DNA of 12,141 bases from Thermoprotei archaeon (lineage in GTDB: Archaea > Thermoproteota > Nitrososphaeria > Geothermarchaeales > JDFR-13). Where the stretch lies: the NCBI GenBank assembly GCA_015661745.1, contig DQVL01000033.1, forward strand, positions 1 through 12,141. Reading direction: 5' to 3'. Under the pieces are notes generated by a model that ran no database searches, was not told where the DNA came from, and worked only from the letters and a program-made list of their open reading frames with translations. A program made the translations under genes and the position numbers. Shown here piece after piece: positions 1 through 11,181 of this stretch (positions are counted from its first letter, which is position 1; each line of letters starts with the position of its first letter).

Positions 1-92
1 CGGTGAACCCCCCCAGACTCCCAGATGAAGTACTGGCGAGAAGCCAGCACGGAACGGGAGAACCACCGTCCATCAGGGCGGGGTAGTTCACG
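1..92 (+). repeat. Copy A (5'-truncated by the window edge) of the repeat family; tnpB-tail / IS200-IS605 right-end-like (omega-RNA-like) 3' module
   Basis: Aligns base for base with 4319-4409 and 10333-10425. Closing helix GTGAAC (3-8) pairs with GTTCAC (86-91). Internal hairpin CTGGC-GAGAA-GCCAG (33-47). One + frame reads ...GEPPSIRAG*, which resembles a decayed TnpB C-terminus. Confidence 0.7.
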
Positions 93-570: not shown

Positions 571-1587
571 ATGGTGGATTCCGTGGCACCCCAGTGCTAC
601 ATTGAAGAGATAGATATACAGGAATTTAGGGGGATAAGGGGGCTCAAGAATCCTATAAAACTATCAAAGTATAATATCATAATAGGTAGGAATAATGTAG
701 GAAAGACGGCGCTTCTTGAGGCGCTATATCTACTCCCATCACCATATGATTCCATAAGAGGACAGCCCTTAATTGGAAGACATAGAATGCCATTAGTTAT
801 AAATCTCCATGGAGGAGACTGGACATCTTTAATATATGGTTATAGTGGCTACGCAAAGTTAAGCTATAAACTATCAACCAATGTAACACTTGAGTTTAAT
901 CTATCATATAAACCTGAGTATTTAAGGGTGGATGGTGAAGAGGCTGGAATAGATCTCTATATAGACTCTATATCTAAGTGCTTTAATATTAAAGAGGAGG
1001 ATGTTAGCCGCTTAACATTCTTAATTCCTAATGATACCCTATTCATTAAAGACCTACATGGAAGGCTACTAGAGGTATGGGATGCCATAGTTAAGGAGGG
1101 GTTGCATAGGGAGATTGTAAGTAGGTTGGTGAACCCTGTAGTTTATGATAAGTTTACGGAGATACTTATTGAGAGAAATCAACTTAAGTTACGTAATGAG
1201 GTTGGGGGTGATATTGGGCCATTGTATATCACGTTAACCGATTTAGGTGATGGTGTTGAGAAGGTCACCACTGTAGGGCTAGCATTAGAATACTTCAAAC
1301 CTAGAGTCGTTTTATGGGATGACCTCGAGGTCGCTATGCATCCAGGTTTAGTAAGGTCCATACTTAGATGGCTAACTTCGAGGGATTGGCAGGTGGTCAT
1401 ATCTACTCATAGTATAGACGTCCTCAATATATTTACTGATCTGGGTTTGAAGGATGGGAAGATAATATTGTTAAGGAAGACATCCGATGACTTCATAGAG
1501 GTATCCAGCTACACCCCAATGGAGATGGGGGATATCATAGAGAAGGGGATAGATATCAGGAAGATCATAGATATCTTGGAGCTATGA
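571..1587 (+). CDS. ABC/SMC-like P-loop ATPase (AAA_21/AAA_15-type, OLD/AbiLi/AriA-like ATPase domain only)
   Basis: N-terminal IEEIDIQEFRGI strand. Walker A GRNNVGKT (residues 39-46). Signature-like LTDLGDGVEKV. Walker B VVLWDDLE. H-loop VISTHS. No transmembrane or nuclease domain is evident. GTG at 583 is an alternative leaderless start, because TTTAAATA at 556-563 is very close to ATG 571. Confidence 0.8.
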   Translation: MVDSVAPQCYIEEIDIQEFRGIRGLKNPIKLSKYNIIIGRNNVGKTALLEALYLLPSPYDSIRGQPLIGRHRMPLVINLHGGDWTSLIYGYSGYAKLSYKLSTNVTLEFNLSYKPEYLRVDGEEAGIDLYIDSISKCFNIKEEDVSRLTFLIPNDTLFIKDLHGRLLEVWDAIVKEGLHREIVSRLVNPVVYDKFTEILIERNQLKLRNEVGGDIGPLYITLTDLGDGVEKVTTVGLALEYFKPRVVLWDDLEVAMHPGLVRSILRWLTSRDWQVVISTHSIDVLNIFTDLGLKDGKIILLRKTSDDFIEVSSYTPMEMGDIIEKGIDIRKIIDILEL

Positions 1588-1610
1588 AACTATATGAAGA
1601 GTGAGGCTAC

Positions 1611-2204
1611 ATGAAATTCTATGAAGGTGAAGTGGTAAGCACTGATGGCATAGTATTCCTTACCGGTGATGGTGGCCGTGAGAAGAGAGTGATTGAGGCA
1701 CTAGCTGAAAAGTATAACCATAAGAAGACGATTTTTAGACCAACATTCATTCCTCATAGAACGGGCCTCACCGGTGTGGTGGAGCAATTGGCAACCCTAA
1801 CTAATTTAAAAATTAGCGTTAAGTCTTATCTAATAGTAATTGATAAGGAGCATGTAAATAATTTTAGCCAGGTTGAGAGGAAGTTAGGTACCTATGGATT
1901 CGAGATACTTGAAAAAAAATTAGAAGAGGGGGCATGGATAGTAAAGTGTAGGAAGGGTGTTAAGGAGATAATGTTGTATTTGGCTGTGATGGGGGAGGAA
2001 AAGTGTATAGAAGAGAATTTAGCTAAGCTAATTAGGCTAAGGTTCGGTGAAGAAGTTGGACCGACAAAGAGAGAGTTAGATAAATGGCTGAAAAGTAGGG
2101 GGATGAATGAAAGAAGTATTATAGAGGGTGCAGGTGAGGATGTATTGAGAAAATCACTACCAAACCTTGTCACACTATTAGAAGAGATTAATATAACTCT
2201 TTAA
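1611..2204 (+). CDS. Uncharacterised 197-aa partner of the ATPase (possibly a degenerate TOPRIM/RloB/DUF4276-like protein)
   Basis: Same strand as the ATPase, 23-nt spacer, GTGAGG Shine-Dalgarno-like motif at 1601-1606. The motifs IVFLTGDGGRE and YLIVIDKEH sit where a TOPRIM Glu and DxD would lie, but the canonical Glu is absent. I recognise no family with confidence. Confidence 0.6.
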   Translation: MKFYEGEVVSTDGIVFLTGDGGREKRVIEALAEKYNHKKTIFRPTFIPHRTGLTGVVEQLATLTNLKISVKSYLIVIDKEHVNNFSQVERKLGTYGFEILEKKLEEGAWIVKCRKGVKEIMLYLAVMGEEKCIEENLAKLIRLRFGEEVGPTKRELDKWLKSRGMNERSIIEGAGEDVLRKSLPNLVTLLEEINITL

Positions 2205-2266
2205 AGATGAGAAGAAGCCGTATTTAGAACCTAGACAGAATATCCATAACCCTAAAAAACCTATAT

Positions 2267-2407
2267 AAAAAGTCGCTAGTAAATCAATTGAATTATCCCA
2301 TTTGATTCGATGGAGGCTATCTATAGATAATCCATAAACCCAAGATAAAGTATTGGTGTAAAGCCAGTATGGAATGGGGAGACCCCTGATTTTAGTTAGG
2401 GGGCCTG
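2267..2407 (+). repeat. Copy B: short chimeric element, IS-like left end plus repeat-family 3' module
   Basis: AAAAGTCGCTA (2268-2278) is identical to the start of the resident IS left end (5121-5131). 2338-2380 aligns with the 3' modules of copies A, C and D, including hairpin TTGGT-GTAAA-GCCAG (2353-2367). A terminal hairpin CCCCT-N10-AGGGG (2383-2402) follows. The element abuts the MNT stop codon. Confidence 0.5.
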
Positions 2408-2833
2408 CTAATCCAGATTGTACTGAGTTGATGGGGATAAGAATCTATCTTCATCAATGGATTTTAGGAGTAGCTTCTCCAGTAGTAGGGGTATCCTCTC
2501 TAGAATGACTCTACCCTCACTCAAAACCTTCTCTATATACCATGGGGGTGCATAGTTAAGTATCCTAGTATCTACTTTGTATCCTAGTTTATCCGTTAGA
2601 GCCTCATCCAGATCAAATTTATAGTCTAGTGGGTCGATCCCACCCCTTATATAGACCGCCACATCAATATCTCTAAATGGGTACTCCCTAAGGAATGACC
2701 CATATATAACAGCCAATAAAATCTCGTTACGCCTAGATAGTTCCACCCCCAACCTATTTATAACAATATCCTTCTCATCCCAAGAGAGCTGGTAGAATCT
2801 AAACCGCTCCCTAATCTCAATCTCCAGAGGCAT
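2408..2833 (-). CDS. mntA: Minimal nucleotidyltransferase (MNT) antitoxin of a HEPN-MNT pair
   Basis: NTase motif YGSFLREYPFRDIDVAVY (GS...DxD). The ORF-track start at 2851 is TTG. ATG 2833 is preceded by GAGGAGG and is the more likely start. Confidence 0.8.
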   Translation of the reverse strand: MPLEIEIRERFRFYQLSWDEKDIVINRLGVELSRRNEILLAVIYGSFLREYPFRDIDVAVYIRGGIDPLDYKFDLDEALTDKLGYKVDTRILNYAPPWYIEKVLSEGRVILERIPLLLEKLLLKSIDEDRFLSPSTQYNLD

Positions 2834-3239
2834 ATCTCTCAACCTCCTCAATAAATTTCTTGACAGCTTCTAACCCATTCCCCCTAGCTTCATCATAGAT
2901 TCTAGTGTCATCGACCACCCAATATCTATGTATTATAAGGTTTCTTAGGCGGGCTAGACGCATCATATTTTGACCTATCTCCCGTGATATAACACCCTTC
3001 TCCACCAACCTTCTAAATACCTCTATATAACCATCAAAATGTCTTTCACCTAGCTCCCTAAGTATATGTAGCCCTAATGATGTTGAAGCCTCAACCACCT
3101 CGATAATAGCGAGTCTAAGAGTGTATATATTTCTGATATCACTCAGGAAACTATTCAGATCCATCTCTACAATACCACCAGCTATATCTAATGAATACTC
3201 TATATCTCTTAATAGCTTCTTTAAAAGCTCTCTATCCAT
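2817..3239 (-). CDS. hepT: HEPN (DUF86) toxin
   Basis: Rx4-6H motif in LARLRNLIIHRYWVVD near the C-terminus. 140 aa. Overlaps the downstream MNT gene by 17 nt (35 nt if the TTG start is used). Confidence 0.8.
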   Translation of the reverse strand: MDRELLKKLLRDIEYSLDIAGGIVEMDLNSFLSDIRNIYTLRLAIIEVVEASTSLGLHILRELGERHFDGYIEVFRRLVEKGVISREIGQNMMRLARLRNLIIHRYWVVDDTRIYDEARGNGLEAVKKFIEEVERYASGD

Positions 3240-3423
3240 CCCCCTCAGTTAAACATTATAACAACCGAGTTAATATTTGCCATGAGATGTCGATGGAGAT
3301 TGTATGGAGTGGAGTAGGTATGGAGCGATGTCATCACATGGAGAAAACGATCTACTAAATGAGTATATAGTTTAACCTATTAAAGTTGGGAGAAAGCCAA
3401 ATACCACTCCTACTGGATATCAT

Positions 3424-3759
3424 TTAGAGAATGGTTAACTTAACATCCTCTATAACCGTTTTGATATATTTGAAGTGCTTATCCATCGTTATTATTTCAT
3501 ATCCATTATTATATCCTATAGCCATGATAATAAGGTCTACGGAAGGGAGGGGATTCCCCTTCTTCCTTAATTCTATCTGCCATCTAATAGCTGTATCATA
3601 ATCTTCTTTCGTAGGATATAAAATTTCACTGGCAGCCGTGAGTGCAGGGGGATATTCAATGACTGTATATATCGTTATATAGCCAGGTATTTTCTCAACC
3701 TTTTCTTTAGATATAAGCTTTATTACTGCGCTTGTGTCGTAGAGTCTAGGCGATTCCAC
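3424..3759 (-). CDS. vapC: PIN-domain toxin VapC
   Basis: Acidic residues in PIN spacing: LYDTS (D8), VIEYP, SVDLII, ITMDKHF. GTG start at 3759. Overlaps the upstream antitoxin by 37 nt. Confidence 0.75.
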   Translation of the reverse strand: MESPRLYDTSAVIKLISKEKVEKIPGYITIYTVIEYPPALTAASEILYPTKEDYDTAIRWQIELRKKGNPLPSVDLIIMAIGYNNGYEIITMDKHFKYIKTVIEDVKLTIL

Positions 3760-4013
3760 TCCCTCATCAACACCTCCCTATACAACCTTACCTCATCATT
3801 ATAGTCTAATGGCTTTAGATCCTCCATCTTAACTCCCTTCTCAACAAGCCTATTCAATAATGATTCGGAGGATTCAACCCTCTCCATCTCCTCCAGACGT
3901 TTCAGATGCTGGATAATACTCTCTCTAATGACCTGGCTCCAGTTAACATCCTTATACCGCCTCATAGCCTCCAGAATCTTTTTCGGGAGTCTCACCGTGA
4001 AATTGGCACTCAT
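3723..4013 (-). CDS. vapB: VapB-type antitoxin (RHH-like N-terminus)
   Basis: Starts MSANFTVRLPKKILEAMRRYKDVNWSQVIRE. Paralogous to the 4807-5037 product. The ORF-track start at 4058 lies inside the promoter palindrome, so ATG 4013 is preferred. Confidence 0.7.
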   Translation of the reverse strand: MSANFTVRLPKKILEAMRRYKDVNWSQVIRESIIQHLKRLEEMERVESSESLLNRLVEKGVKMEDLKPLDYNDEVRLYREVLMREWNRLDSTTQAQ

Positions 4014-4024
4014 CACATCCCCAT

Positions 4025-4078
4025 TATATTGTATGTATGTGCATGTATATATATACATATATATCCATACAATATAAA
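4025..4078 (-). promoter_or_regulatory. vapBC-1 promoter with nested palindromic operator
   Basis: An 11-bp perfect inverted repeat, TATATTGTATG (4025-4035) and CATACAATATA (4066-4076), is concentric with a perfect 16-bp palindrome ATGTATATATATACAT (4043-4058). On the minus strand TTTATATTGTAT (4067-4078) is a TATA-like box about 54 nt upstream of the ATG. Confidence 0.55.
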
Positions 4079-4163
4079 GCTATGTAACCAACTCCATGAG
4101 ACAGCGTAATTTAAAGTCCATATAAAATGAAGGATATAAAATGGGCTTAACCTAAATAGAATT

Positions 4164-4409
4164 TTATCTCCTTGTTGTCTGCAAACCCTCTTCCGAATGA
4201 ATAGAAAAGAGGCGATGGTTTTAAATATTCCTGTAAACATCGGATTTTCTGGGATTTTCCCATTGAGAATAGAGGCTTGAGTAGCCCATGCCTTATCGAG
4301 ATGTATGGGATGGGGGAGCTGTGAAACCCCGGAACTTCCAGATGGAGTATTGGTGAGAAGCCAGGATGGAACGGGAGAAACCACATCCATCAAGATGGGA
4401 CAGTTCACG
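4164..4409 (+). repeat. Copy C (full length) of the repeat family: internal promoter plus omega-RNA-like scaffold, no ORF
   Basis: Collinear with 10170-10425 over its whole length with small indels. The overlapping minus-strand ORFs change frame between copies, so it is non-coding. The left boundary is uncertain by about 10 nt. Confidence 0.75.
4220..4227 (+). promoter_or_regulatory. TATA box inside repeat copy C
   Basis: GCGATGGTTTTAAATATTCC resembles the resident IS left-end promoter ATCGATAAGTTTAAATATATCC. The predicted TSS is near 4250, about 160 nt upstream of the element's 3' end. Confidence 0.5.
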
Positions 4410-4424
4410 TTTGACATTTAGGTG

Positions 4425-4820
4425 TTATGGATGGACTTTAATACCAAGTTTTGTTGCTACTTTAGCCTGCTCATCATCCAGTGTTAGGAGTGTTCCACCC
4501 ATACTACGTGCCAATACAATATATAGTGAGTCATACACAGTTAACCTATTCTCTAAAGCGATCTTTAAAGCATCATCTATATACTCTATCTCGGGATATA
4601 AAGTTATGTTCCTACCTATCATAGATTTTAATATATTATATGCTTTTAACGCGTCATCAAAGCTTATATATTCTCTATAATATGCCTTCCATATAGCGTT
4701 AGAGACCTCCTTAAGAAGATGATCTATAGATACAGCCCTCACAAGATACTCTGCAATATCTCTCCATCCATCTTCACGGAGTATGAATGCTGTGAGAGCT
4801 GATGCATCAACTACTATCAC
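4425..4820 (-). CDS. vapC: PIN-domain toxin VapC
   Basis: Starts (GTG)IVVDASALTAFIL. Later acidic residues in LLKEVSN, VYDSLY and LTLDDEQ. GGAGG lies 5 nt upstream of the GTG. Overlaps vapB by 14 nt. Confidence 0.85.
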   Translation of the reverse strand: MIVVDASALTAFILREDGWRDIAEYLVRAVSIDHLLKEVSNAIWKAYYREYISFDDALKAYNILKSMIGRNITLYPEIEYIDDALKIALENRLTVYDSLYIVLARSMGGTLLTLDDEQAKVATKLGIKVHP

Positions 4821-5037
4821 GATCCTCCCTCACAGATGATGCGGAGAAACCTTTGGGTACCCTCCATCCGGCGTTGGAGAGGATCTCCATTACAGTTTTA
4901 AAGTTTTCTTCAGCCTCTAGCTCCCTAACCTTCTCTTCAACAAACCTTCTAAGTTCTTCACTCCAATTAATCCTATCCCTATACTTATCCATCAACTCCT
5001 TAATCTCCCTCCTAACCTTAAAACTGACAACACTCAT
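4807..5037 (-). CDS. vapB: VapB-type antitoxin
   Basis: Starts MSVVSFKVRREIKELMDKYRDRINWSEELRRF, paralogous to the 3723-4013 product. AGGGGT precedes ATG 5037. An upstream in-frame ATG at 5058 is possible. Confidence 0.7.
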   Translation of the reverse strand: MSVVSFKVRREIKELMDKYRDRINWSEELRRFVEEKVRELEAEENFKTVMEILSNAGWRVPKGFSASSVREDRDSS

Positions 5038-5191
5038 TAGACCCCTAAATAATACCATATAAACTACTAATTAATAATACCAGTAAGTATACAATATAAA
5101 ACCCCCCAGAAAATTCTTACAAAAGTCGCTAAGAAAGCTTATGAATTTATTCATGAGATGGATTAGGGGAGGTGGGTGGGTTATCGATAAG

Positions 5192-5199
5192 TTTAAATA
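5192..5199 (+). promoter_or_regulatory. TATA box of tnpA (leaderless)
   Basis: TTTAAATA is centred about 27 nt upstream of ATG 5224. Confidence 0.6.
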
Positions 5200-5223
5200 T
5201 ATCCACAACTTTAAAGTTGATAG

Positions 5224-5616
5224 ATGAATAACTATCAACATTCAAGGAATAAGGTGTATCTAATCCAGTATCATTTAGTCTGGTGTCCTAAGAGGAGAAA
5301 GCCTGTCTTAGTTGGGAAAATTAGGGAGAGATTGGAACAAATAATATATGAAGTTGCAGAGGAACTGGGAATTAAAGTCTTAAAACTTGCTATAAATCCA
5401 GACCATCTCCACTTATTCGTTTCAGCCTATCCAACAATTTCTGTCCACAAGATTGTGAAGAGAATTAAAGGTAGAAGCTCTCGCATTTTAAGGCAAGAAT
5501 TTCCAGAACTGCTTAAGCTTCCATCGCTATGGACTCATTCATACTTCGTTGCAACAATTGGAAGCGTTTCAAAGGAGATAATCGAAACATATATTGAGGC
5601 TCAGAAGGGGAGATAA
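5224..5616 (+). CDS. tnpA: IS200/IS605 Y1 (HUH) transposase TnpA
   Basis: HLVWCPKRRKPVL, HUH motif in NPDHLHLFV, catalytic Tyr region LWTHSYFVATIG. 130 aa. Confidence 0.9.
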   Translation: MNNYQHSRNKVYLIQYHLVWCPKRRKPVLVGKIRERLEQIIYEVAEELGIKVLKLAINPDHLHLFVSAYPTISVHKIVKRIKGRSSRILRQEFPELLKLPSLWTHSYFVATIGSVSKEIIETYIEAQKGR

Positions 5617-6725
5617 TGTTAGTTAGAAAGGTTATTAAGGCTAAGATATTGGATGAAACAAATAAAAGAAAGCTTGAAGTGTTGGAGAGAGAATACAATA
5701 ACTTCCAGAAAGCCTTGAAAGGAGAAGATGTTAAGCTTTATTCAGCGACAAAACAGCAAGCTGAGAGATTATTAATGAAAATTAAGAAGCAAAACGGTGG
5801 AAAACTTAGACGAAAAGAGTATCCATTAATTCTGAGGAACGATGTTTATAGAGTGTGGGATGTCAAAGTAACTGACAACAAGCTAACGAAATACTGGATT
5901 AAGATTCCTATTTATGGAATTAGAGGCGGTGTGAATCTACCAATTAGACCTCATTGTGAATTAGACATGAGCTGGAGATTTAAAGAGGCTAAAGTTATCA
6001 GAAAGAAAAATGGCTGGTTTGTGCACATAACGGTGGAGAAGGAAGTAGAAATTAAGAGAGAATACGACAACATTCTTGCTATTGATTTAGGAATAAAATG
6101 GATTGCCACAGTCGTTTCAACAGCTGATAATAGACCAAAATTCTATGGAAAAGAGCTAAGAAGAGTTAGGGGACATTATTTCTATCTTAGAAGAAAGCTC
6201 GGGAAACTAAAGAAGTTTAAAGCTATAAAGAAGATTGGAAACAAAGAAAGGAGAGTGGTTAATGACCTTCTACACAAGATTTCAAGAGAGATTGTTAACA
6301 GAGCCAAGAAGGAGAATGCTATGATAGTATTGGGTGATTTAAAAGGAATAAGAAATCAAGACAAGGGAAGGAGGTTTAACAGAAAGTTAAACTCATTTCC
6401 ATACTATCGATTATCTAAATTTATAGAATACAAAGCAGTTTGGGAGGGAATAGCAGTAATAAAAATCAATGAAGCTAACACATCGAAGCTATGCTCCCGT
6501 TGTGATTCTCAAGGTTTGAGGCACAACGGGAGATTTGTATGTCCAAAATGCGGAGTAGAGTTTAACGCAGATTATAACGGAGCTTTAAATATTTTGAAAC
6601 GAGCCCTTGGGTATATCTCAAGGGCAGGGGCTGGTTTGACACAGCCCATAACTCGGGAGGATGAGTGGAAGCCACGACAAACCGAGAATCTCCCGGCTTT
6701 AGCCGTGGAGAGTGTCAACTATTAA
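5616..6725 (+). CDS. tnpB: TnpB (IS605 OrfB) RNA-guided RuvC-like nuclease
   Basis: RuvC triad candidates in ILAIDLGIK, IEYKAVWEGI and FNADYNGALNI. Zinc finger CSRCDS...CPKCG. TAATG one-nt overlap with the tnpA stop. 369 aa, with an apparently intact catalytic set. Confidence 0.9.
   Translation: MLVRKVIKAKILDETNKRKLEVLEREYNNFQKALKGEDVKLYSATKQQAERLLMKIKKQNGGKLRRKEYPLILRNDVYRVWDVKVTDNKLTKYWIKIPIYGIRGGVNLPIRPHCELDMSWRFKEAKVIRKKNGWFVHITVEKEVEIKREYDNILAIDLGIKWIATVVSTADNRPKFYGKELRRVRGHYFYLRRKLGKLKKFKAIKKIGNKERRVVNDLLHKISREIVNRAKKENAMIVLGDLKGIRNQDKGRRFNRKLNSFPYYRLSKFIEYKAVWEGIAVIKINEANTSKLCSRCDSQGLRHNGRFVCPKCGVEFNADYNGALNILKRALGYISRAGAGLTQPITREDEWKPRQTENLPALAVESVNY
6604..6719 (+). ncRNA. Predicted 3' part of the TnpB omega-RNA (reRNA) scaffold
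   Basis: Hairpin CCCTTG (6604-6609) with CAAGGG (6619-6624). Hairpin GTGG-AAG-CCAC (6665-6675). Right-end hairpin at 6689-6711. Closing helix GTT(T)GACAC (6634-6642) with GTGTCAAC (6712-6719). The true 5' end is unknown and probably lies further upstream. Confidence 0.5.
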
Positions 6726-7853: not shown

Positions 7854-8405
7854 TCATCCATGGCTTGATCTAACTAAATCTTTTATGGCTCTACCTATCT
7901 CCTCGGCCAACGTCTCTGGGTCGTCAAATATGTTTATCTTGGTCAGCCTCCTCCTATCTATATATGGGCTTAACAAACCAATTTTATCTGTTGAGTATCC
8001 CTTCCCAGTTAATATATAGATTGGTTTAGACTCTGTATATGCAGTTATAATCTCTAGTATAGAGCCTGCCTCTCCACCCAATGCTATAAATATGTCGGAG
8101 CTTCTAACCATCGGTATACTCCTCATCCTCATTGATAGTCCCAGCTTAAGAACTATGACGTCATGGGGATACTCTAGATCCTCCAGGTCTAGAGGTGGAA
8201 AAAGTATTATTTGACCACCCTTCTCCCTTATAACATCGACGATATCCCTCATTAACCCCCAGTATCCACCTAGGAGGAAAACTATCTCTCTATATCCATC
8301 TGTAAGTTTATACAGCTTCTCAAGGAACACCTTTATATCCTCCCTATCCTTCGGCTTTGGGTCTCCACTATATGCTGCGAAACATATTTTAATCATTATT
8401 ATCAC
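7854..8405 (-). CDS. TIGR00725 / LOG-like (SLOG superfamily) Rossmann-fold protein
   Basis: Motifs LLGGYWGLMRDIV and ALGGEAGSILEI. The start at 8405 is GTG; ATG 8396 (MIKICF...) is an alternative. Confidence 0.65.
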   Translation of the reverse strand: MIIMIKICFAAYSGDPKPKDREDIKVFLEKLYKLTDGYREIVFLLGGYWGLMRDIVDVIREKGGQIILFPPLDLEDLEYPHDVIVLKLGLSMRMRSIPMVRSSDIFIALGGEAGSILEIITAYTESKPIYILTGKGYSTDKIGLLSPYIDRRRLTKINIFDDPETLAEEIGRAIKDLVRSSHG

Positions 8406-10167: not shown

Positions 10168-10169
10168 GG

Positions 10170-10425
10170 TTATCTCCTTGTTGCTCGCAAGACCCATTCC
10201 GAAAGGGAGGGGATAAGTAAGGGGAGCGATAGTTTTAAATATTCCTAAGAACCTAAAAATTTTCTGGGATGTTCCCATTAAGAATATGATCTGAATAGCC
10301 CATGCCTTAACGAGAGGCGTGGGAGGGAGGAGTTGTGAACCCCCCAAAACCCCCAGATGAAGTATTGGCGGGGAGCCAACATGGAATGGGAGAAGCCCCA
10401 TCCATCAATACGGGGGTAGTTTACA
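10170..10425 (+). repeat. Copy D (full length) of the repeat family
   Basis: Collinear with 4164-4409. It fills the whole gap between the MYG1-like stop codon (10165-10167) and the sirtuin GTG start (10426). Confidence 0.75.
10234..10241 (+). promoter_or_regulatory. TATA box inside repeat copy D, oriented toward the sirtuin gene
   Basis: AGCGATAGTTTTAAATATTCC is conserved with copy C. The predicted TSS is near 10264. Confidence 0.5.
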
Positions 10426-11181
10426 GTGTCTAATATAGATAATGAGCTTATTGTTAAGGCAGCTGAATACATATATAGAGCTAAGAACCTCATCGTCTTT
10501 ACAGGTGCTGGGATGAGTGCAGACTCTGGGATACCAACTTTTAGGGGGGAGGATGGGCTATGGAATAGATATAGGCCTGAGGATCTAGCGACTTTAGATG
10601 CATTCCTTAGTGATCCTGTGAAGGTTTGGAGATGGTATCTATGGAGGATATCGAGGCTTAAATCGGTTAAGCCTCATAAGGGATATAATGTATTGAGTAG
10701 ATGGTATCGAATTGGTATCCTTAAATATGTTATTACCCAGAATGTAGATGGACTCTTTATCGAATCCGGTATCGATAAAGTTATAGAGTTACATGGAAAT
10801 ATATTGAGGGCTAGATGTACATCATGTAGATATAGCTCTCCAATAGATAAATTGGATAGGTCTTCACTACCTATTATATGTCCTAGATGCTATGGACTTA
10901 TGAGACCAGATGTTGTATGGTTTGGTGAACCCCTCAACCCATCTATACTTGATAAGGCTTATCAATTGGCTAGGGAGTCGGATGTGATGCTCGTCATAGG
11001 TACTAGTGGGGTGGTATATCCAGCAGCTTATATACCATATATAGCTAAGGAGTCTGGCTCTAAAGTTATAGAGATTAATGTTGAGGAGTCTATGATTACA
11101 GAGATATCAGATATCTTTATAGGTCTTAGAGCTGCTGAGGCATTGACCTATATAGATAAATATTTAAGTAGGTATAGATAA
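10426..11181 (+). CDS. cobB: NAD-dependent protein deacylase (Sir2/CobB sirtuin)
   Basis: GAGMSADSGIPTFRG, QNVDGL, LHG, and zinc ribbon CTSC...CPRC. GTG start. Confidence 0.9.
   Translation: MSNIDNELIVKAAEYIYRAKNLIVFTGAGMSADSGIPTFRGEDGLWNRYRPEDLATLDAFLSDPVKVWRWYLWRISRLKSVKPHKGYNVLSRWYRIGILKYVITQNVDGLFIESGIDKVIELHGNILRARCTSCRYSSPIDKLDRSSLPIICPRCYGLMRPDVVWFGEPLNPSILDKAYQLARESDVMLVIGTSGVVYPAAYIPYIAKESGSKVIEINVEESMITEISDIFIGLRAAEALTYIDKYLSRYR

Follow-up and report, generated by a model that had tools for sequence, protein, structure and literature searches.

Gene-less repeats of a Thermoprotei archaeon join the left-end promoter of a tnpB element to a putative omega-RNA scaffold

Palindrome-associated transposable elements (PATEs) were described in Haloquadratum as products of IS1341/IS605-type elements that have lost their core, and in haloarchaea they run from versions keeping C-terminal tnpB sequence down to terminal-only forms of about 52 bp (Dyall-Smith et al. 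2011, PMC3119063). Many PATEs encode omega-RNAs, which then have to be used in trans (Meers et al. 2023, PMC10055086), and stand-alone mobilised omega-RNAs do work in trans (Altae-Tran 2021, as summarised in PMC10691335). In Halobacterium salinarum, the PATE-derived noncoding RNA (ncRNA) VNG_R0052 is expressed, alongside sense overlapping transcripts (sotRNAs) that cover tnpB 3' ends and for which no upstream promoter of the classical BRE/TATA kind was found (Gomes-Filho et al. 2015, PMC4615843). The window analysed here is a 12.1-kb contig (12,141 nt) from a metagenome-assembled genome (MAG) of an uncultured Thermoprotei archaeon (NCBI proteins HIQ12993-HIQ12999; ENA scaffold ANDE17-1), in which an earlier, sequence-only reading had noticed a family of short repeats. 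We consider it quite likely that these repeats are PATEs derived from a tnpB-only (IS1341-type) insertion sequence (IS) of the IS200/IS605 family, widespread in thermophilic archaea, and that they keep its promoter and scaffold as a guide-RNA gene acting in trans.

The repeats resemble the haloarchaeal PATEs in being gene-less, in having no terminal inverted repeats and in carrying near-terminal hairpins homologous to those of a tnpB-bearing IS; core deletion, insertion beside a 4-5-nt target and a size series (here from 241-251 nt to 87 nt) are also common to both. They differ in their hosts (thermophilic Thermoprotei, Archaeoglobi and Korarchaeia), in their end sequences and in the TTAT target, and a promoter and a five-helix omega-RNA can be recognised explicitly in what they retain. 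With stand-alone omega-RNAs and omega-RNA-bearing PATEs they share a mobilised locus without an effector or transposase gene, a guide taken from the flank beyond the right end and a presumed dependence on the TnpB of another element. The published omega-RNA cases are bacterial and some have been tested biochemically, whereas the present archaeal family is known from sequence only; the RNA here is apparently driven by the parent's own tnpB promoter, set beside the scaffold by deletion, and no compatible TnpB is seen in the part of the same genome that could be read, about 20 kb (the window and 7.7 kb of extra flank from the related assembly L003). As with sotRNAs, VNG_R0052 and HgcC, we are dealing with a putative archaeal ncRNA at the 3' end of an IS1341-type tnpB, with a right-end hairpin and tetraloop; unlike the sotRNAs, these PATEs have a clear TATA box, and in an Rfam search of the window that included HgcC (RF00062), no family matched any copy at E<=1. 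As far as sequence can tell, the copies have the testable defining features of both a PATE and an omega-RNA locus. PATEs with omega-RNAs and trans-acting stand-alone omega-RNAs are already published (PMC10055086, PMC10691335, PMC4615843, PMC3119063), and the sequence-only reading overrated the novelty of the repeats.

The window has a G+C content of 39% and holds toxin-antitoxin and defence-type genes together with one autonomous IS200/IS605 element. A 30-nt degenerate core pattern matches it at 29-58, 2349-2378, 4346-4375 and 10361-10390, all on the plus strand, with none expected by chance, and repeat families D1, D2, D7, D9 and D10 of a repeat analysis likewise show the PATE copies. The two full and two partial collinear copies first reported were all recovered on the plus strand, by the core pattern as well as by a covariance model. 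Over 190 nt, the full copies A and B share 78% identity. The copies enclose no intact open reading frame (ORF), for a transposase or anything else, and carry stops and frame shifts; the overlapping ORFs differ between copies and switch frame from one to the next, as had been claimed.

Copy A (241 nt, 4168-4408, plus strand) consists of a left end fused to a putative omega-RNA scaffold and right end, and is collinear with about positions 7-115 and 1216-1316 of the intact IS of locus L022 described below; alignments A3 and A4, to the left end and tnpB tails of L006 and L005, agree with this. It follows a TTAT (4164-4167) that is host DNA outside the element, namely the insertion target, or transposon-adjacent motif. 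About 19 nt after the TTAT, a subterminal hairpin can be read from the sequence (CCTCTTC...GAAAAGAGG, 4187-4212); hairpins of other sequence occupy the equivalent position in copy B and in L006, L010 and L022. Next come a TATA box, TTTAAATA (4220-4227), which corresponds to the tnpB promoter of the parent element and lies 31 nt upstream of GGATGTTCC, and a predicted transcript leader (4251-4281) made of the hairpin GGGATTTTCCC and the first tnpB codons, with ATG mutated to ATT. This leader is homologous to the sequence ending in GGGATGTTTCCCATGAAGAAGG at the tnpB start of L022 and L006. The scaffold (4282-4408) comprises helices P1-P5, of which P5 is the right-end hairpin, and ends with GTTCAC. 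By the known TnpB/omega-RNA layout, the would-be guide is the flank GTTTGACATTTAGGTGTTAT (4409-4428); similarity between copies stops at 4408. This guide would overlap the 3' end of a convergent PIN toxin gene on the opposite strand.

Copy B (251 nt, 10174-10424, plus strand) has the same layout, with a TTAT at 10170-10173, a hairpin at 10193-10212, a TATA box at 10234-10241, GGGATGTTCCC at 10266-10276 and the scaffold at 10296-10424. It takes up the whole 258-nt gap (window 10168-10426) between the stop of a MYG1-like gene (10167) and the GTG start of a SIR2 gene (10426); its promoter faces SIR2, which starts 2 nt beyond its right end, and its would-be guide, AGTGTCTAATATAGATAATG (10425-10444, plus strand), includes the SIR2 GTG. 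The ends drawn in the sequence-only reading need correction: the starts at 4164 and 10170 had taken in the shared TTAT, and the right ends lie one base earlier than proposed, at 91, 4408 and 10424 (GTTCAC/GTTTAC), so that the elements are 4168-4408 and 10174-10424.

The parentage of the copies was traced through their conceptual translation, which matches TnpB C-termini ending in NIAHALTRGMGWGSCEPPELPDEVLARRQDGTGEAPSVRAG and a stop. Used as a profile, the frame-corrected translations match the C-terminal parts of TnpB proteins that end in CPKCGL, a variable residue, YNRDLNAAINIAHALTRGMGWGSCEPPELPDEVLARRQDGTGEAPSVRAG and a stop, and also many short "hypothetical" ORFs of Archaeoglobi, Korarchaeia, Thermoproteota and Asgard archaea that start abruptly before AHALTRG. 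The DNA of these matches yielded a near-complete tnpB-only element (L006), the 3' half of a tnpB (L005) and a further orphan, that is, a copy without tnpB (L007). A pattern specific to the window subfamily had no match in the JGI metagenomes and only two chance bacterial matches in the genome collection. A second pattern, the most conserved scaffold stretch (helices P1-P2), retrieved 64 loci when the JGI metagenomes were scanned, about 25 of them attached to a full-length tnpB and the rest orphans; it biases junction statistics toward copies keeping P1-P2, which a covariance-model search of the flanks partly corrects.

Among these loci, L022 contains an intact 1,337-bp tnpB-only element of the IS200/IS605 family (1477-2813), preceded by TTAT and encoding a TnpB of 404 aa, and it provides the full-length tnpB with a matching 3' tail that the sequence-only reading had proposed to look for, in a metagenome. 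The copies match positions 7-115 of this IS at 72% identity and positions 1215-1318 at 84-85%, and correspond to it minus about 116-1214, roughly 1.1 kb. The retained left end comprises the subterminal hairpin, the TATA box and the first tnpB codons, and the retained tail is the last 130 nt or so. More specifically, homology between the 5' half of the copies and the tnpB element's left end extends over about 19 nt, the subterminal hairpin, a GGGGAT stretch and the TATA box; the TATA box and GGGATGTTCCC just before the tnpB ATG are collinear between copies and parent, and CTGGGATGTTCCCAT is identical in the copies and directly before the tnpB ATG of a parent-type element. A homologue of the 5' half is therefore present at the left end of a tnpB element. 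The 3' half, from TAGCCCATGCC to GTTCAC, is collinear with the tnpB tails of L005, L006 and L022, and similarity stops at GTTCAC/GCTCAC. Compared with intact tnpB-only elements (L022, L012, L019 and L045), the left end, TATA box, leader hairpin, scaffold, right end and TTAT are homologous, and the window copies differ by lacking about 1.1 kb of tnpB and by their mutated start codon. The parent thus bears out the proposal that the repeats are internal-deletion derivatives of an IS200/IS605 relative, and these alignments support a structural model in which a left-end promoter has been joined to what appears to be an omega-RNA scaffold and right end.

The promoter of the parent seems to have been retained with its spacing. 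The conserved GCGAT(A/G)GTTTTAAATATTCC pointed out earlier is present at 4213-4231 and 10227-10245. Throughout the family, whether tnpB is present or not, 30-33 nt separate the start of the TATA box (TTTAAATA or CTTAAATA) from a small conserved hairpin motif downstream, GGGATGTTCCC or its compensated form CTCGGATGTTCCGAG; in the window the distance is 31-32 nt. Archaeal TATA boxes are centred near -26. Because of this spacing, transcription is predicted to start at about 4251 in copy A and 10266 in copy B, and in the parent the same start would give a tnpB mRNA with a short leader. The small hairpin GGGAUGUUCCC at the predicted start, or in the 5' untranslated region of tnpB (4251-4261 and 10266-10276; left ends of L006, L010 and L022), is kept family-wide, and the compensated variant CUCGGAUGUUCCGAG retains the same UGU loop. 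It may act in translation control, in binding of TnpB or TnpA, or as a processing signal. The sequence downstream of the promoter, about 160 nt long, is GC-richer as had been noted, the scaffolds reaching 52-56% against 39% for the window.

To characterise the scaffold, 50 distinct sequences, attached and orphan, were aligned over 128 positions. The alignment folds into five helices (P1-P5) with 31 pairs. The proportion of paired cells is 97.5%; shuffling the columns lowers it to 87.4%, and sliding the partners by 1-3 columns to 45-59%. Cells with double changes number 152 against 48.6 expected, a value reached by 0 of 500 shuffles; three covarying pairs are in P3 and five in P4, and ten pairs show double changes overall. 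P1 is nearly invariant in the 50-scaffold set; in the orphans L062 and L033 it has been rebuilt by four compensatory pairs (GCCCGCAGG...CTGCGGG) despite the loss of the reading frame. A covariance model (R1) built from this alignment, which contained copies A and B, was run on the window. It scored copy B at 108 bits (10296-10424) and copy A at 103 bits (4282-4408), both over model positions 1-128, and the edge-cut copy C at 42.9 bits (4-91, E 5e-11), reported over positions 1-128 with 47 positions (P1-P2) skipped at the edge. The tail of the resident tnpB followed at 29.7 bits (6601-6718, E 2e-7; positions 1-128, same helix order), and copy D at 22.4 bits over positions 52-121 only (P3-P5; 2336-2403); no further copies were found across the window. 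The alignment of the last 110 nt or so with the resident tnpB tail and right end, claimed earlier, therefore reflects real homology, although a distant one (29.7 bits). Folded as a single sequence, copy B gives a modest z of -2.6, and the minus strands of the copies gave nothing.

Some scaffolds depart from this model. Variants L031, L039, L052 and L061 carry about 60 extra nucleotides after P4 (...GGAACCTCGTG...CTTCCAGCAAAACGGGC...GAAAAAGCTGGAAGCTCC...), apparently an added or duplicated stem. In the orphans L013 (minus strand, about 8000-8093) and L021 (32-125), the scaffold is broken after P2/P3 by a sequence resembling a tRNA 3' half (GGGCGCGTGGGTTCAAATCCCATTTCCGGCG), followed by a T-run, which may represent a tRNA-gene junction or an integration site.

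The family appears to be mobile. TTAT stands immediately before the left end of copies A and B, L022, L063 and nearly all related orphans, at otherwise unrelated sites, so the TTAT at 4164-4167 and 10170-10173 can be taken as the insertion target. The layout of TTAT, about 19 nt, hairpin, TATA box, leader, scaffold and GCTCAC or GTTCAC recurs in about 30 orphans. In the metagenomes the same PATE, internally near-identical, sits at numerous distinct TTAT sites (L010, L046, L036, L015, L050 and L029 among others), which points to mobility, and three to four copies lie within this window. The TTAT is about 19 nt 5' of the left hairpins (4187-4212 and 10193-10212), and the right hairpin, P5, is 8-10 nt before the end. 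This geometry of target and hairpin matches the one established for single-strand transposition of the IS608 type. The copies have no terminal inverted repeats and their flanks are not duplicated; TTAT adjacency together with the lack of such repeats is what is expected for single-strand transposition by a Y1 TnpA.

The course of events that we propose begins with what the alignments show, an internal deletion of about 1.1 kb that removed nearly all of tnpB and joined the left-end promoter to the scaffold; transcription, loading onto TnpB and compatibility with TnpA are predictions. A Y1 TnpA acting in trans would move the resulting PATE by single-strand "peel-and-paste" transposition. The retained tnpB promoter would start, near 4251 and 10266, an RNA of about 175-180 nt, composed of a leader of about 30 nt, a scaffold of about 128 nt and a guide from the 3' flank, and a compatible TnpB made elsewhere would trim and load it. 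The loaded TnpB would then cut the vacated site, TTAT plus flank, and recombination would restore the element, as has been proposed for IS200/IS605 elements generally (PMC10055086). The PATE would in this way exploit both TnpA and TnpB while encoding neither. A compatible TnpB may be lacking in this genome, so the copies may currently be idle.

The resident autonomous IS200/IS605 element (5121-6719, plus strand) follows a TTAC (5117-5120) and carries tnpA (5224-5616) and tnpB (5616-6725), with the Pfam domains Y1_Tnp, OrfB_IS605 and Cas12f1-like_TNB. The resemblance of the copies' promoter to its left end, noted before, is genuine homology (a shared 16-mer, AGGGGAGGTGGGTGGG, and TTTAAATAT), and the resident IS is a distant relative of the PATE parent. 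Its tnpA lies 700 nt from copy A and is a possible source of TnpA in trans; the resident element uses TTAC and different hairpins. The cognate TnpB family has 493 matches at E<=1e-30, intact genes included, with carriers among Archaeoglobus veneficus (its TnpB P0056 is 86% identical to that of L022), Thermococci, Asgard archaea, Methanodesulfokora and a Methanophagales virus. The suggestion that the cognate TnpB lies elsewhere thus holds for other genomes and metagenomes, where intact genes exist, and finds no counterpart in the 20 kb or so read from this organism.

Several observations weigh against a guide-RNA gene in working use here. Neither the window nor the additional 7.7 kb read from L003 shows a cognate tnpB, the resident TnpB is only 34% identical to the cognate-type TnpB of L022 and its own scaffold scores 29.7 bits, and none of the 120 TnpB relatives listed is named as coming from a Thermoprotei archaeon, most of them being nameless. 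A few non-canonical pairs occur in both window scaffolds, and single-sequence folding of copy A (z = -0.4) is no better than for shuffled sequence. A search for an empty site among close homologues of the flanking SIR2 gene found none. Copy B is present in all five related assemblies (L003, L073, L072, L074 and L004), and a comparison of close strains, of low power, counts 3 differences among the 258 sites of the element and 3 among 530 third-codon positions, with no sign of constraint. Eight further copies in the retrieved loci, found by the covariance model and hence outside the pattern selection, are all orphans and form a graded deletion series: from promoter and full scaffold, through damage to P2 or loss of the TATA box, to a left hairpin fused to P3 as in copy D, and finally to an 87-bp fusion of the left to the right hairpin, the smallest member, without RNA module. 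Promoter and intact scaffold are kept in only about a third of these eight and, since minimal PATEs without the RNA module exist, retention of the RNA is not required for persistence. Retention of the module is thus common but not obligatory. The label of orphan omega-RNA given to the repeats in the sequence-only reading fits the copies that keep the module and not their shorter relatives; the copy at 2267 belongs with the truncated forms.

These observations bear most directly on the possibility that the RNA module is a functionless passenger here, with the same origin as above, kept by TnpA-type transposition and drift, its scaffold being present simply through the position of the founding deletion. 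The missing cognate gene, a strain divergence not below that of third-codon positions, the non-canonical pairs (several per copy), the relatives that have a damaged P2, no TATA box any more or no RNA module at all, and copy D without P1-P2 all speak for it. It is harder to reconcile with copies A and B, which have diverged by 22% although the TATA box, its spacing and nearly all 31 pairs are preserved in each of them, or with the compensatory changes in P1 of the frame-less orphans L062 and L033; about 20 orphans also keep the junction directly 5' of P1, a count biased by the search pattern. We regard the passenger explanation, the main rival, as rather unlikely. Quite improbable, in our view, is exaptation by the host as a portable promoter or regulator, with copy B driving SIR2, copy A acting antisense to the PIN gene, or the RNAs guiding a nuclease-dead TnpB-like repressor. 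Copy B does fill the entire MYG1-like/SIR2 gap with its promoter directed outward at SIR2, an arrangement conserved in the five related assemblies, and the flank of copy A does overlap the PIN 3' end on the other strand. However, any insertion at an intergenic TTAT would yield such an arrangement, its conservation is uninformative because the related strains are less than 1% diverged, the guides have no match other than their own flanks across the window and L003 (about 20 kb), and no TnpB-like repressor gene lies nearby.

A different origin altogether would make the copies independently decayed 3' stumps of full insertions, whose "TATA box" is the trace of the RuvC-III codons NAAxNI. One frame of copy A indeed reads ...LSPCC...EAMVLNI...AHALSRCMGWGSC..., mimicking a zinc finger followed by the RuvC-III motif. 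However, alignment places the 5' half on the left end and 5' untranslated region of the parent, including CTGGGATGTTCCCAT, and not on the zinc-finger region; in intact genes NAAINI directly abuts AHALTRG, which leaves no room for the extra 55 nt or so, and a decayed gene would not fit around copy B, which is bordered directly by host genes on both sides. Such an origin, with stumps collinear with tnpB and a TATA box made of the codons for LNI, is extremely improbable and is refuted by the left-end alignments. Returning to PATEs with a retained guide-RNA gene, we also see a small chance of something further: a double parasite under selection, formed by the PATEs that keep promoter and scaffold, which borrows TnpA to move and secures its retention by loading the TnpB of unrelated or distantly related elements, perhaps the 34% identical resident one, with a guide from its own flank, or copies adopted by the host as RNA-guided or promoter-level regulators, such as copy B before SIR2. 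If either were true, the family would show in nature how genes for guide RNAs can spread without their nuclease.

The two partial copies complete the set in the window. Copy C (1-91, plus strand) is cut by the window edge and runs from the end of P2 to P5, with GTTCAC ending at 91 and a would-be guide at 92-111; it is here that the TnpB-like reading GEPPSIRAG plus stop, reported earlier, is found. Copy D (about 2267-2412, plus strand) is a shortened PATE in which a left end of the resident-IS type (AAAAAGTCGCTAG..., hairpin AATCAA...TTGATT) is fused to P3-P5 only, lacking P1-P2 and a clear TATA box. Its left end corresponds to repeat D14 (2268-2294 against 5121-5147 of the resident IS), its final bases (2404-2412) overlap the stop codon of a minus-strand nucleotidyltransferase (MNT) gene, and analogous truncated relatives exist (L041_1330 and L033_3007).

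The resident IS and its relatives show some peculiarities of their own. The right end of the resident element (GTCAAC, ending at 6719) precedes the tnpB stop (6723-6725; window 6714-6725), so that the last two TnpB codons and the stop come from flanking host DNA. Its AT-rich left hairpin (CTTATGAAT..ATTCATGAG, 5138-5157) is unlike its right hairpin (CTCCCGGC-TTTA-GCCGTGGAG, 6690-6710), which is identical to those of L045, L051 and L054; in the related elements L010 and L023 the left and right hairpins resemble each other. The resident IS may, on these comparisons, be a mosaic. A solo left end of its type lies at 477-570, where TTAC (477-480) is followed by AAACTATCGCTAAAAAAGCTTATGAATTTATT, 96% identical to 5126-5151; the TTTAAATATAT box of this fragment is just upstream of an AAA_21 ATPase gene (571-1587), whose promoter the remnant may supply. 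An exact look-up of the protein encoded at 571-1587 returned no record. In independent assemblies of close strains (L003, L004, L072 and L074), contigs stop within copy B, some 92 or 43 nt short of SIR2, or precisely at the right end of the resident IS, which fits both being multi-copy repeats in those genomes.

The genes around the copies form, from 571 to 5058, a dense defence and toxin-antitoxin island with the AAA_21 ATPase and a DUF3226-like partner, a HepT/MNT pair and two PIN-domain toxins preceded by small partners, interspersed with the autonomous IS, the four PATE copies and the solo left end. Upstream of a putative antitoxin gene (3723-4058), an AT-rich near-perfect palindrome (4013-4096, TATATGTATGTGCATGTATATATACATATATA...) is probably a toxin-antitoxin operator or promoter; weak matches to miRNA families of Rfam at this palindrome are spurious.

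In summary, the general understanding of these elements is unchanged, as PATEs and stand-alone omega-RNAs had already been described. Particular to this family are its lineage, its TTAT target and a parent promoter set directly against the scaffold, and it offers a clean, fully mapped archaeal case in which one deletion would turn a tnpB element into a mobile guide-RNA gene. Anyone mining for compact thermostable RNA-guided nucleases could draw on the covariation-supported model of five helices, on the TTAT target and on the intact TnpB genes from thermophiles. A TnpB of the cognate family (P0139), 66% identical to that of L022, is annotated in the Methanophagales virus PBV299, and the orphan of L007 (1205-3500) adjoins a D5-type primase and a serine resolvase, which suggests that it lies in an integrated element or plasmid; the family therefore appears to travel on viruses and other mobile elements. 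It is widespread in hot-spring and hydrothermal archaea, and its graded deletion series could be used to probe how much of the RNA module persistence requires.

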